NCBI RefSeq assembly: GCF_003018255.1 | Contig: NZ_CP027440.1 | DNA: 64,000 bases | Reading direction: 5' to 3' (one strand) | Source of the DNA: Escherichia coli | Lineage (GTDB): Bacteria > Pseudomonadota > Gammaproteobacteria > Enterobacterales > Enterobacteriaceae | Part shown: positions 6,519 through 11,548 of the stretch, one piece after another | Position numbering within the stretch: position 1 is the first letter of the stretch | Layout: each line of letters opens with the position of its first letter | Notes under the pieces: generated by a model | Databases searched by the model: none | What the model was told of the DNA's origin: nothing | Seen by the model: only the letters and a program-made list of their open reading frames with translations | Translations under genes and position numbers: made by a program

Positions 6519-8951
6519 TTAAGCAGAGCGGGGCGGTAATTGGTAGATTTCGTTTTCCAGCTCGCTGAGCGCCTGATTATACCCGTTACGGTCGCCAAAT
6601 CCGGTTTTAATAATCTCCGGTAAGGTGCCCATGCTGTCGAATGGTTTAAGTTTCAGCACCTGAATACTTTCGATCTCCTGTACGCCCGCATCGGCGTATT
6701 TATCCAGCAGATTATCGAGCACGGCTTGCGCTGCTTCAGAGTATTTTGTGAAGTAGTTCCGCTTGCGCACGTTCTCGGCGCGCTCTTTGCGGGTTAACGG
6801 CGGCTGACCATACACTACGTGGCAAAGCATGTCGAACGGGTCGAGATCTTTACCGACTTCTTCTGCCAGTACTTCCCAGATGATCCCCTGTTGTTCCAGC
6901 TCGTGAATGATCGCTTCTTTGCGATCGGCGTCCTGCCACTTGCGGGTAAAGTCATCCAGCGAGGCATATTCTTTGAGCAGTGTTTTGCGGGTGTAATCTT
7001 TAAAAGATTCGGTAACCAGTTTACCGTCGGCATCGTAATACTGAACACGCTGCGCAATAACGCCCACCGCTACACCGTTGACGTGAAACTTGCGGATTTT
7101 CTTCTCGTCTTCTTCCGGAAGTGGGCCGACATCATCGGTATCGGTAACCTGGTATGGTGGCGCAGGCGGTTCATCAACGCCTGTTACCTGTTCGTCGTCA
7201 TGTTCGCTGATTTCTTCGAGTTTCTCTTCAAAATCAGATTCTGGATCGGCGATATCCTCTGATGTGGTATCCATGACTTTTTCGGGAATGCCATCGAAAC
7301 GCTCATCGGCAAACAGTTCGGTGGCTTTTTTAAAGTCGAGGATGGTAAACCAGAGTTTGCCGTAACGTTCGTCGATGCGTGTACCACGACCGATAATTTG
7401 CTTGAATTTGGTCATCGACTGGATGTTCTGGTCCAGTACTACCAGTTTGCAGGTTTTAGCATCCACACCAGTGGTCATCAGCTCTGAAGTGGTCGCGATA
7501 ACCGGGTACGCTTTTTTCGGGTTGATGAAGTTATCCAACTGAGCTTTGCCAATTTCATCATCGCCGGTGATTTTCATGACGTATTTGTCGTTCTTTTTCA
7601 CCTGCTCCGGGTTGAGATTCACCAGGGCGCGGCGCATACGTTCTGCATGATCGATGTCGTTACAGAAGACGATGGTTTTATCCATCGGGTTGGTGCGCTT
7701 GAGGTAGTCGGTAATGGTTCTGGCAACCAGTTCTGTCCGTTCGTCGATTACCATCGTGCGATCGAAATCTTTCTGGTTATAGATACGATCGTCGATCACT
7801 TCGCCGTTTAAGTCAGTTTGCCCTTTGGTTGGGCGCCAGCCTTGCAGATCAACATCAATATCAACACGGACAACTTTATAAGGGGCGAGGAAGCCGTCTT
7901 CGATCCCTTCTTTTAGCGAGTAGACGTAAACCGGATCGCCGAAGTAATCCGTGCTGGAGACTTCATGCGTCTCTTTTGGCGTGGCGGTTAAGCCAATTTG
8001 GGTGGCGGAACTGAAATAATCAAGGATCTCTCGCCAGGCGCTGTCTTCGGATGCGCTGCCGCGATGGCATTCGTCGATCACGATCAGATCGAAGAAATCT
8101 GGTGCGACTTGTTTAAACGCTTTTTGGTCTTCCTCCGGGCCAGTTATAGCCTGATAGAGCGCGAGGTGAATTTCATAAGCGGGATCAATGGTGCGTCCGC
8201 TGACTTTGGTCATTGCCGTACCAAATGGCTGGAAATCATTATTTTTGGTTTGGTCGACCAGAATGTTGCGATCGGCAAGGAACAAAATGCGTTTTTTATT
8301 TTTTGATTTCCACAGGCGCCAGATGATCTGGAATGCGGTATAGGTTTTCCCTGTTCCGGTCGCCATGACCAGCAGAACGCGGTTTTGCCCGTTGGAGACG
8401 GCTTCAATGGTTTTGTTGATTGCCTGAAGCTGGTAATAACGAGGCGATTTGCCGCTGCCATCGTCGTAATAGTCCTGAGTAATCACCGGAAGCTGAGCTT
8501 GTGTGTATCCTTTCCAGAGGCAGAATTTTTGCCAGAGTTCAGCGGGGGAGGGGAAGTCATCCAGCGTTATTTGCTTTTCAAGGCATTCACCTTCAGCTGC
8601 GGTGGCATCGCGGAAGATAAAGCCATCACCGTTGGTGGCAAAAACAAAAGGAACGTCCAGCAGGCGCGCATATTCAATGCCCTGTTGCATCCCTTTGCCA
8701 ATTTCATGTTTGTTGGCTTTTGCTTCAATCACGGCTAAGGGAATGCCTGGTTTGTGATACAGCACGATGTCAGCAGATTTTACCGTTCTGCGTGCCGCAA
8801 CTTTACCACGTACGATGACTTTACCGTTCCGGAGTTTGACCTCCTGTCTGATTTGCGTTGTGTTGTCCCAGCCTGCATTGAGAATGGCTGGCATAACGCA
8901 TTTGGTAATGATGTCTGCTTCCGTCAGGTTACTTAGGTTCAGTTCCGCCAT
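6519..8951 (-). CDS. hsdR: Type I restriction endonuclease subunit HsdR, 810 aa (EcoAI-like / type IB size class)
   Basis: Helicase motifs [11 protein letters not shown] (Walker A) and VIDECHRG (DECH box); 810 aa is far shorter than EcoKI-type HsdR; gene order hsdR-hsdM-hsdS on the minus strand. Confidence 0.9.
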
Positions 8952-9091
8952 GGGGTGTTCTCATCTAAATGCGATGCGTAAATTCTACACAGAAAAATAG
9001 ATGAATTCATCTGTTCAAAGAGTATTATCAGCGTTAAGTCACTGTTTTAAAGGTATTCTTGAGTTTCATCAATAGCTGGATAAGGATTCAT

Positions 9092-10060
9092 ATGGAGAAT
9101 GTTCGGTTCTTGCAAGGAGTGAAACAATATTTTTGTACTAAGGCATTAGATGTCATTCTGCTAATTTATCTACTCCTTGGTTTTATACTTCTCCCTTATA
9201 AATATCTGTGGAAAGATATTATTTTATCTCTGTACTTTGTTGGTATTCTTCTTTATGCATTAGTGGAAGAAAATCGCATTGCAGAATATATGGGGTATTT
9301 TGTTAAGTTCAGTAATAAAAACAGGTTGAATAGTTGTGCTGCCTGGTGTTCACTTATTGCATGGTTTATATTTTTGTTTTTTGTGCTTTCAATTAATATT
9401 TTTCCAGTCAGTGCCTCTGTATATATTTTTAGTGCTTTTTCATTATTTGTTTTTCTGGGGGGTATTTTTATTATATTAGAGTTAGAGTTTAAAGAAAATA
9501 AAAAATTAATGATTATTAGGTCTGTGACTATAGCAGTCATGCCAATTATATATTTATTCACAAGTAGTTATGCTTCCAGTTTATTTTTAAGTTTGAGTAA
9601 TCTAAACATTACGCTAACTCCATGGGTTGAGTATTTCTGGAAAGGGATGGTTTTTATGTTGCTTTTCTTCATGTTAATGCAACTTATTATCTATTTTGCT
9701 TTTTTAACTCTGGGGACTAAATTAAGTGTGTATAGGTTGTTTATACTTGCCGGAGCATTTGTAGTATCTACTTTTTTAGTGGCTTTTGCTTTAAAAAATG
9801 TAGAAGGTATTTCGTACTACGTTTTAAAAAGCACCATAGATTTTGAATGGCGTAATCAGATTAAATGTGGCCAGTTGAATATTTCACGTTCGAATGAAAA
9901 GTATTTTGGGTTTAATACTGATAAATATACTGTATTTTATTCCGGCAGAGATGGTAAATGGGGCTTTGATGAGTTGAAATGTAAGAAAGGTTCTGACAGG
10001 AGAGATGCATATTCTATTGAGAATGTCTCAGAATATAACGTGCCTGGATGGCTGAAATAA
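9092..10060 (+). CDS. Hypothetical polytopic membrane protein (about 7 TM helices plus 80-aa hydrophilic C-terminal domain), very AT-rich gene
   Basis: Long ORF in AT-rich DNA; ATG at 9092 preceded by AAGGA (the ORF track begins at a TTG at 9059); hydrophobic segments throughout; lies where K-12 has mrr; I recognise no family. Confidence 0.55.
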   Translation: MENVRFLQGVKQYFCTKALDVILLIYLLLGFILLPYKYLWKDIILSLYFVGILLYALVEENRIAEYMGYFVKFSNKNRLNSCAAWCSLIAWFIFLFFVLSINIFPVSASVYIFSAFSLFVFLGGIFIILELEFKENKKLMIIRSVTIAVMPIIYLFTSSYASSLFLSLSNLNITLTPWVEYFWKGMVFMLLFFMLMQLIIYFAFLTLGTKLSVYRLFILAGAFVVSTFLVAFALKNVEGISYYVLKSTIDFEWRNQIKCGQLNISRSNEKYFGFNTDKYTVFYSGRDGKWGFDELKCKKGSDRRDAYSIENVSEYNVPGWLK

Positions 10061-10377
10061 GTCATCTTTATAAATTATATAGTAAAGGTTCTGGTCATAA
10101 ACGAGCATAGTTAAACATAAACGGGGCATACTCCACACACTTGATGTGCAGCAAGAAGTTGAACTCATGGCTTTGGTTAATAAATCTGACGAAGATATTG
10201 ATTACAGCGACATTCCTGCGTCTGGTAGCGAAGCATGGGCTGACGCCACACGCGGCAATTTTTTGCCAGATCCAGGTATTCACGCGCAATAAAACTTAGC
10301 GGAGGGGAGCACGTCGTTCTGTTTCCCCCTCACTGCTAAGTGGGGCATTGGGTTGCTTTACACTCAACCTTTTACGA

Positions 10378-11334
10378 TTATTTCCTCAACCCCGCAAACG
10401 CCGCCCGAATCTTATCCTCCGGCAGCTGAATCCCGATAAACACCATTGTGCTATGCGGTGTTTCATCGCCCCACGGGCGGTCCCAGTCGGCGCTGTAGAG
10501 GCGTTGGACGCCCTGGAACAGCAGGCGGCTAGGTTCGCCGTCAATCCACAGCATCCCTTTGTAACGCAGTAGTTTATCCGCCGATTCCAGCAGCAGGTTT
10601 TCCATCACGCGGGAAACTTCGCTGATATCTACCGGGTAATCCAGTTCCACCACAATCGACGAAATATCGTTTTGTTTATCCGCGATAAAGTGGAAACGCG
10701 GTTTGGTGCTGACGACGTTTTCTTCCAGCATAAAACCGTTGGTGTTGAACAACAGGCCCAGGTCGATGTCACCGTGGGTGACGGTGTAGACCGGTGCGCG
10801 GGCGTTGATGCGCGCCAGGCGTTCACGCAGTTTCTCTACTTCGCCTGCGACGTCGGTTTTAGTCAGCAGAATACGGTCAGCGTAGCCCACCTGGGACTGG
10901 GCGATGGTGAACTGGTTCATCTGCTCATCGGCATGTACCGCATCCACCAGCGCAATCACGCCATCCAGCAGGTAACGCTGGCATAAAATCTCATGGGAGA
11001 AAAAGGTCTGAATAATCGGGCCGGGATCGGCCATGCCGGTGCATTCAATGACCAGACGGTCGAACTGAATATTGCCCTTGTCGAGATTGTCCAGCAGGTC
11101 GAGTAGCGCGTCCTCCAGCTCGTTGGAGCGCGAACAGCAGATGCAGCCGTTGGTCAGCGTTTTGATCTGCGTGGCGCGGTCGCCAATCAGTTGATCATCA
11201 ACGGAGACTTCGCCGAATTCGTTTTCAATCACGGCAATTTTGTAGCCGTGCTGTTCATTAAGAATATGGCGCAGCAGGGTGGTTTTGCCCGCGCCTAAAA
11301 AACCGGTGAGTAGGGTAACTGCAATCGGGTTCAT
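10378..11334 (-). CDS. yjiA: CobW/P47K-family GTPase (zinc chaperone-like) YjiA
   Basis: MNPIAVTLLTGFLGAGKTTLLRHIL (P-loop) from ATG at 11332-11334; the ORF-track N-terminal extension is not used. Confidence 0.9.
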   Translation of the reverse strand: MNPIAVTLLTGFLGAGKTTLLRHILNEQHGYKIAVIENEFGEVSVDDQLIGDRATQIKTLTNGCICCSRSNELEDALLDLLDNLDKGNIQFDRLVIECTGMADPGPIIQTFFSHEILCQRYLLDGVIALVDAVHADEQMNQFTIAQSQVGYADRILLTKTDVAGEVEKLRERLARINARAPVYTVTHGDIDLGLLFNTNGFMLEENVVSTKPRFHFIADKQNDISSIVVELDYPVDISEVSRVMENLLLESADKLLRYKGMLWIDGEPSRLLFQGVQRLYSADWDRPWGDETPHSTMVFIGIQLPEDKIRAAFAGLRK

Positions 11335-11344
11335 GCTCTCTCCA

Positions 11345-11548
11345 TTAACAACAGCGCATACCGCCTTTACCATCGCCGCCGTAGCGCGCGTTCTGGCGTT
11401 CGCGGAAGAATTCTTCATAGCTCATGTACGGCTTGTCGGGATGGTTGGTCTTCATATGCTCGACGTAGTTGTCGTAGTCTGGAATGCCAATCAACATCTT
11501 CGCCGCCTGGCCGAGATATTTTTTTGCCTGTCCTAAGTTACCAAACAT
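11345..11548 (-). CDS. yjiX: DUF466 small protein YjiX
   Basis: 67-aa [51 protein letters not shown]..., conserved partner of btsT. Confidence 0.85.

Follow-up and report, generated by a model that had tools for sequence, protein, structure and literature searches.

A brnA antitoxin gene fragment, probably a non-functional remnant, at the yjiA edge of the Escherichia coli immigration control region

The results of this analysis indicated that positions 10101-10264 of a 64-kb stretch of Escherichia coli DNA (the whole stretch analysed, hereafter the window) are a non-functional pseudogene remnant of brnA, which encodes the antitoxin of the type II toxin-antitoxin pair BrnT/BrnA, located where the immigration control region meets yjiA; the probability that we assign to this reading is about 0.86. 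The remnant is an ordinary one, already present in databases under inconsistent names. Its evolutionary unit is the 63-codon frame at 10101-10292 (a 192-nt CDS in RefSeq), not the 41-codon ORF that forms the tail of this frame. The features of the locus are as follows.

9059-10060, plus strand: AT-rich (25-35% GC) membrane ORF, with a length of 333 aa when read from TTG and 322 aa when read from ATG 9092, the start used by RefSeq.
10061-10100, no strand: spacer of 40 bp, common to all remnant alleles (alignments).
10101-10264, plus strand: brnA' remnant, codons 1-54/55 of 100 (tblastn, blastn and alignments to intact loci).
10101-10103, plus strand: former start codon, ACG in the window and ATG in all other alleles examined.
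10167-10292, plus strand: 41-codon ORF with its stop, starting at the internal Met23 of the BrnA frame.
10259-10264, plus strand: T6 run at the 3' homology breakpoint (window sequence).
10265-10377, no strand: single-copy replacement tail of ca. 113 bp, which gives the last nine codons and the stop of the ORF.
10288-10341, minus strand: terminator-like element, a hairpin (10294-10341) and then UUUUAUU (10288-10294).
10378-11334, minus strand: yjiA (GTPase), the conserved anchor gene (ORF listing and RefSeq homologues).

The ORF reported in the first-pass annotation, from ATG 10167 to TAA 10292, does exist: the start codon (10167-10169) and the stop codon (10290-10292) are both present in the same frame on the plus strand, between the membrane ORF (9059/9092-10060, plus strand) and yjiA (minus strand). 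Its product had been given as 42 aa; it is 41 aa, 42 codons being reached only when the stop is counted, and the peptide written down at the time (...GNFFLPDPG) carried one F too many, the true reading being ...RGNFLPDPGIHAQ (AAT TTT TTG CCA). The complete 41-aa product is MALVNKSDEDIDYSDIPASGSEAWADATRGNFLPDPGIHAQ. The sequence 5' of ATG 10167, gcagcaagaagttgaactcATG, is without a GGAG-like core, in agreement with the earlier remark that no convincing Shine-Dalgarno sequence was present. The frame is open upstream as far as TAA 10098-10100, and a start at GTG 10146 would give 48 aa. Since the ORF listing around the locus holds 60 ORFs of at least 30 aa within 6 kb, a 41-codon ORF is by itself no more than what chance provides; what makes it non-random is its homology to BrnA. 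Ordinary intergenic DNA carrying a chance ORF without gene ancestry, the case named at the outset as the one that would speak against a gene remnant, would fit the abundance of short ORFs of such size and the failure of Pfam, NCBIfam, PADLOC and Rfam to return any match. It is contradicted, however, by the strong statistical significance of the match to brnA, in protein as well as DNA searches, and by the exact synteny with intact brnTA described below, and we regard it as extremely improbable.

In tblastn with an intact BrnA as the query, BrnA residues 2-54 matched window positions 10104-10262 (E = 1.3e-21), and in blastn positions 10103-10263 showed 75-77% identity to intact E. coli brnA. 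The Smith-Waterman score of the brnA part (10101-10263) against intact loci was 131, as compared to 15.6 ± 2.1 for shuffled sequences. When the 63-aa product was restored and used in a database search, it matched 100-aa proteins named 'BrnA antitoxin family' that carry PF14384 (60-85% identity over residues 1-54) and come from E. coli, Pseudocitrobacter and Klebsiella. By sequence homology, the segment belongs to the BrnA antitoxin family (PF14384). The kind of search that had been proposed as a check, run here with the 63-aa product, thus found full-length BrnA relatives, and the proposal of a truncated remnant of an antitoxin-like gene was borne out, the fragment being homologous to BrnA and an intact brnT-brnA pair standing at the same site in other E. 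coli. The DIDYSDIP motif had correctly been recognised as antitoxin-like, but in the parent protein it does not form the N-terminus and belongs to the presumed toxin-binding segment in the middle (residues 14-57).

The 41-, 48- and 63-aa products gave no Pfam match even at E ≤ 10, and NCBIfam and PADLOC scans of the same three products gave no match either. The failure in Pfam is explained by PF14384 spanning residues 37-93 of intact BrnA, and the family identity was reached only through full-length relatives of the 63-aa product. The fragment does not match the PF14384 model and has no conserved C-terminal block (RIDADV...GYQTRLNAILREAM).

In the intact loci, brnT (95 aa, PF04365) and brnA (100 aa, PF14384) overlap by 14 nt and lie between a gene for an Mrr-like nuclease and yjiA; the pair is convergent with yjiA, and the brnA stop is 33 bp from the yjiA stop. 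This arrangement was confirmed in E. coli (L004 and L005), in ST131 (L012), in strain Ecol_AZ155 (L013) and in Pseudocitrobacter (L007 and L008). By blastn, an intact-type match (60-80% identity to 10103-10263) was found in ca. 2112 of 5426 complete genomes, of which a handful were checked for synteny of the intact operon, and the remnant was found in ca. 510. A second brnA-like place occurred in just two of the 2622 genomes with any brnA-like match, so that no further brnA/brnT copy can be seen at the DNA level in the genomes that carry the remnant. On plasmids, brnA-like matches were nearly absent, with two places in the genome collection. K-12 has neither intact brnTA nor the remnant, and its mrr ends 45 bp from yjiA.

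Compared with BrnT/BrnA of the E. coli immigration control region (e.g. WP_001295743.1 / WP_000063148.1 of ST131), the window fragment occupies the same chromosomal site and is likewise convergent with yjiA, and its codons 1-54 are homologous (73-81% nucleotide and ca. 70% amino-acid identity). Unlike these pairs, it lacks brnT, the C-terminal 46 residues with the conserved PF14384 block and the Shine-Dalgarno sequence, its start codon is mutated and selection on it is relaxed. No BrnT-like sequence was found in the 64-kb window by tblastn; where an overlapping brnT (PF04365) would stand upstream, the window has the unrelated membrane ORF. The founding members of the families, BrnT/BrnA of Brucella abortus (PDB 3U97 is BrnT), belong to the same Pfam families as the intact relatives (PF04365 and PF14384), but the likeness is only distant (E = 3.4e-4 between BrnT of the E. 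coli region and 3U97), and the window holds an antitoxin fragment without a toxin.

Over positions 10046-10377, the sole difference between the window and the metagenome contig L027 is T>C at 10102; the contig encodes the same protein with an ATG start. The 63-codon frame is open with ATG in most remnant-bearing genomes and in 14 of 14 metagenome contigs. In the window, both the start codon (now ACG) and the ribosome-binding site of an intact brnA are missing: the Shine-Dalgarno sequence GAGAGGAG is gone, and ggttctggtcataa stands in its place. Since T>C at 10102 destroyed the start codon, the 41-aa ORF is a leftover open stretch that follows an internal, non-conserved Met. Position 23 is polymorphic: where the window has Met, other remnant alleles have Lys, and most intact BrnA proteins have Lys or Gln.

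These observations bear on the suggestion that the ORF from ATG 10167 is a micro-protein gene of its own with a function unrelated to BrnA. Gene finders have called the exact 41-aa product on 68 contigs, where it is deposited as 'hypothetical protein [Escherichia coli]'. However, its start Met is replaced in the relatives, so that the ATG 10167 start is not conserved; it has neither a Shine-Dalgarno sequence nor a promoter, no sigma-70-like promoter having been found in 9900-10500 by a promoter scan; its last nine codons and stop were supplied by unrelated non-coding DNA, which shares positions with the U-tract of the putative yjiA terminator; and it became the longest ATG-initiated reading only after the ATG>ACG mutation. 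The micro-protein alternative raised in the first-pass annotation is not favoured by these points or by a dN/dS of ca. 0.7, and we consider it scarcely credible.

The whole segment is present in ca. 450 (443-448) of 5426 complete E. coli genomes at 94-96% identity (megablast). The RefSeq label for the 63-aa CDS is either 'antitoxin' (WP_000063145.1) or 'hypothetical protein' (WP_001513538.1), and near-identical 63-aa alleles at three loci (L001, L002 and L010) bear different names. GenBank also holds partial versions of 41, 42, 45, 48, 55, 57 and 61 aa, none of which is flagged as a pseudogene. Descent from brnA explains the two labels on the 63-aa ORF as well as the 41-aa deposits, and all these 63- and 41-aa entries should be flagged as brnA pseudogene fragments.

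Both breakpoints of the homology were located by alignment to the intact loci. On the left, the 40-bp spacer (10061-10100) showed no significant similarity to the brnT 3' end when Smith-Waterman scores were compared with those of shuffled sequences. The spacer was rejected as a remainder of the brnT 3' end on this ground, and a 9-nt match, ATCGTAAAG, seen in one alignment may be due to chance. On the right, homology is gone after CGCGGCAATTTTTT. At the protein level, after ...RG(K/N)F the remnant reads LPDPGIHAQ and then stops, while intact BrnA continues FRPLKTQASVRIDADVMEWLKRPGKGYQTRLNAILREAM.... Judging from protein sequences, the length of the T6 run at this breakpoint appears to vary among strains, and such changes within the run or close to it may account for the frameshifted tails of the database proteins P0010 and P0012.

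By Smith-Waterman comparison, the tail that follows is unrelated to the brnA 3' half, nor is it related to the intact-locus spacer or to the mrr-yjiA spacer of K-12. A diverged brnA 3' half was rejected as its source, with scores of 14-16 against a shuffle mean of ca. 15. The tail is present once each in 511 of 5426 genomes and is confined to remnant-type genomes; a repeated element (REP, MITE) was rejected since the tail is single-copy in these 511 genomes.

The tail contains a minus-strand hairpin with an interrupted stem of 15 pairs, and the 96-nt stretch containing it folds at -27.8 kcal/mol (z = -2.47). The TAA of the ORF falls within the U-tract of the hairpin. Judged from its folding, the hairpin could plausibly terminate the convergent btsT-yjiX-yjiA transcript. 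A simple terminator scan gave no site here because the loop is longer than the 3-8 nt allowed by the scan. An Rfam scan of 9800-10600 at E ≤ 1 gave no match, and a known small RNA or riboswitch at the locus was rejected on that result. The 33-bp spacer of the intact locus contains a GC hairpin unlike that of the tail. The 45-bp K-12 mrr-yjiA spacer (L011, 865-909) holds a REP-like palindrome, GCCGGATGCGGCTGCGCCTTATCCGGCC, which is unrelated both to the window hairpin and to the GC hairpin of the intact brnTA loci. Three different hairpin-forming sequences are thus found 3' of one yjiA stop codon.

The immigration control region is anchored on yjiA (PMC12707154, PMC2481252), and brnAT is listed among its toxin-antitoxin systems (PMC12707154). 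In the window, the order is hsdR (EcoAI family, 6519-8951), the membrane ORF, the remnant and yjiA at 10378, so that the segment adjoins yjiA on the hsd / type IV restriction side. The DNA is variable up to the anchor and conserved beyond it. Among 1986 genomes matching the query in megablast, most match only from 10377/10378 onward; yjiA-btsT matches 5425 of 5426 genomes and is 99.6% identical to several E. coli genomes. The proposed alignment with the K-12 mrr-yjiA junction and with other strains was run and placed the segment on the variable side. Four junction types (window, K-12, intact brnTA and IS1 deletion) can be aligned exactly from the yjiA stop, 10377|10378, where homology common to all E. 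coli begins. The segment had been thought to mark the right-hand boundary of the restriction island, which is essentially right, and this edge is now fixed to the base, at the yjiA stop codon. The segment itself holds two older junctions, at ca. 10100 and ca. 10264.

The yjiA entry of the ORF listing extends to ATG 11418 (346 aa, 10378-11418, minus strand), while RefSeq homologues start MNPIAVTL (318 aa, window position 11334). The extension up to 11418 is probably untranslated.

Selection on the fragment is relaxed. The pairwise dN/dS of remnant alleles was 0.4-1.65 (Nei-Gojobori) and the pooled value was 0.70, which is not the purifying selection seen in functional members of the family: for intact brnA the values were 0.03-0.12; when one near-identical pair that is three substitutions apart is left out, they were 0.03-0.09 for the whole gene and 0.07-0.17 for codons 2-54. 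For yjiA of the same genomes the value was 0.04, and the membrane ORF had a pooled value of 0.35. Six distinct remnant alleles show 16 nonsynonymous and 6 synonymous events, numbers consistent with omega = 1 and incompatible with omega = 0.1 (P = 9e-6); mild constraint (omega ca. 0.35) is weakly disfavoured (P = 0.085 for 6 alleles and 22 substitution events). Among eight haplotypes, 12.7% of the alignment columns of the brnA part are variable, a density matched by the non-coding spacer (12.5%), and the tail has 8.8%. Residues that are invariant in eight intact BrnA sequences are changed: D43S and K53N/I occur in all remnant alleles and G52S occurs in L015; two further changes at such positions, M3I and A20V, are seen in the window's lineage. 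D32, which is always acidic in intact BrnA, is H or Y in some remnant alleles. The DIDYSDIP core and W46 are unchanged in all of them. From these allele comparisons, the remnant appears to evolve nearly neutrally. In other lineages, independent IS1-associated deletions with end points at ca. 10169 and ca. 10215 have removed its left part together with the whole hsd cluster.

We propose the following course of events for the brnA remnant in the lineage of the EcoAI-family (type IB) hsd cassette. Its homology and synteny, the two breakpoints, the loss of the start codon and the relaxation of selection are established by the comparisons above, and the order of events is the part that we infer. 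The ancestral state would have been a brnT-brnA pair at the yjiA edge, as in many E. coli and in Pseudocitrobacter. On the left side, brnT and the ribosome-binding site of brnA would have been replaced by the AT-rich membrane ORF and the 40-bp spacer. On the right side, the 3' 46 codons of brnA (the PF14384 C-terminal block, the predicted DNA-binding half) and the original terminator would have been replaced by ca. 113 bp of unrelated DNA, which would have brought its own putative hairpin terminator for yjiA. The truncated 63-codon frame would then have drifted neutrally, presumably without being expressed, and T>C at 10102 would have destroyed the start codon as the last step in the lineage of the window.

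A different role for the same fragment is suggested by a deposited structure. PDB 7VD7 contains a BrnT-like toxin of 94 aa as chain A, which matches BrnT from intact E. coli loci at E = 1.5e-52, together with chain B, an antitoxin of 44 residues that corresponds to BrnA residues 14-57. The window frame aligns to residues 2-42 of chain B (41 of 44 residues, E = 1.4e-10); it carries D43S and K53N, at positions invariant in intact BrnA, and ends without R56 and P57. A literature search on 7VD7 gave no relevant paper, and a toxin-binding role of chain B is presumed solely because it was deposited together with the toxin. Since the remnant keeps this presumed toxin-binding segment, a stand-alone neutralising peptide is structurally possible. 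Read-through transcription from the membrane ORF into the remnant is possible as well, and by this route a 63-aa product (41 or 48 aa in the window) might be made that binds and neutralises BrnT as an anti-addiction factor without a DNA-binding or autoregulatory domain. The intact DIDYSDIP core and W46 in all alleles, the open frame in most carriers and the RefSeq name 'antitoxin' agree with such a function. However, dN/dS is ca. 0.7 and the variability equals that of flanking non-coding DNA; positions invariant in intact BrnA are changed (D43S, K53N/I and G52S), and some alleles have H or Y in place of D32; a lineage represented by at least 68 contigs has lost its start codon; the Shine-Dalgarno sequence is lost and no promoter was found; the IS1 deletions are tolerated; and carriers have no resident brnT at the DNA level, with brnA-like matches on plasmids nearly absent. 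A functional short antitoxin is therefore unlikely in our judgement.

Orphan or degenerate chromosomal antitoxins have been proposed as 'anti-addiction' modules, an example being the chromosomal ccd of Erwinia chrysanthemi against the ccd of the F plasmid. The remnant resembles them in that its ORF stems from an antitoxin gene and the cognate toxin is absent from the genome that carries it. The antitoxins in cases such as Erwinia chrysanthemi ccd are, however, conserved and expressed, whereas the window ORF is under neutral drift and no longer has its start codon. That the 63-aa frame, present in ca. 8% of complete E. coli genomes, might serve as a stand-alone toxin-binding decoy against brnTA modules that enter the restriction island by recombination is a speculation that we hold to be very unlikely; if it were true, the window would represent a lineage that has just lost the decoy. 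As a brnA pseudogene remnant, the fragment is of little importance beyond annotation, and a wider interest, as a minimal natural antitoxin, would arise only if it still neutralised BrnT.

The origin of the remnant was considered from its divergence. In nucleotide sequence, the brnA part shares 73-81% identity with the intact alleles of E. coli and of Pseudocitrobacter, which are 85% identical to each other. Since the remnant differs from the resident alleles no less than the E. coli and Pseudocitrobacter alleles differ from each other, the parent allele was probably not one of today's E. coli alleles. Wherever an examined locus still carries the EcoAI-family hsd cassette, the remnant is found with it and with the membrane ORF. 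We infer that the parent brnA allele was probably imported together with the type IB (EcoAI-family) hsd cassette and the membrane ORF. This cassette bears the scar of an earlier brnTA arrangement, which is a small piece of evidence for cassette-by-cassette replacement.

The membrane ORF fills the slot that brnT and the Mrr-like nuclease take in intact loci, and none of the examined remnant loci that retain the hsd cluster lacks it. Pfam and PADLOC gave no match for it. Its dN/dS of 0.35 points to a genuine gene that evolves fast, the product of which is a predicted membrane protein.

One contig, the ENA scaffold MUNK22-1_SAMEA7428242_METAG-scaffold_214898 (L014, 856 bp), joins the membrane-ORF 3' end to a complete brnA of 100 aa, beyond which REP-like sequence takes the place of yjiA; no other contig with both the membrane-ORF end and a full-length brnA was found. 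Its identity to the remnant is 99% up to codon 40 and 55-60% afterwards. The sequence specific to this scaffold is absent from JGI metagenomes, and the same left junction elsewhere, in 14 metagenome contigs and one genome-collection contig, is always followed by a truncated brnA. The scaffold was considered as an intermediate arrangement and set aside, as the identity breaks at codon 40, there is no second example and the other contigs are all truncated; it may be a chimeric assembly or a rare recombinant.

Some further observations concern mobile elements and database entries at this locus. IS1 abuts the remnant in strains EC2202095, XYEH3314, 3502, 361 and 23AR0998 (L003 and L020-L023); these strains lack most of the restriction island, with no hsd and no membrane ORF, and the right part of the remnant with the tail remains beside yjiA. 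In one short-read assembly (Logan ERR7570119 contig, L018, 640-2089), an IS110-family transposase gene follows the remnant in the usual place of yjiA. A 10.5-kb contig named 'MAG: Bacillota bacterium isolate OH_SDB_141' (JAEWTL010000091.1, L024) matches the E. coli hsdR / membrane ORF / brnA' / yjiA locus, with ca. 700 bp aligned and the same ORF layout, and its presence in a Bacillota MAG is probably due to mis-binning or contamination.
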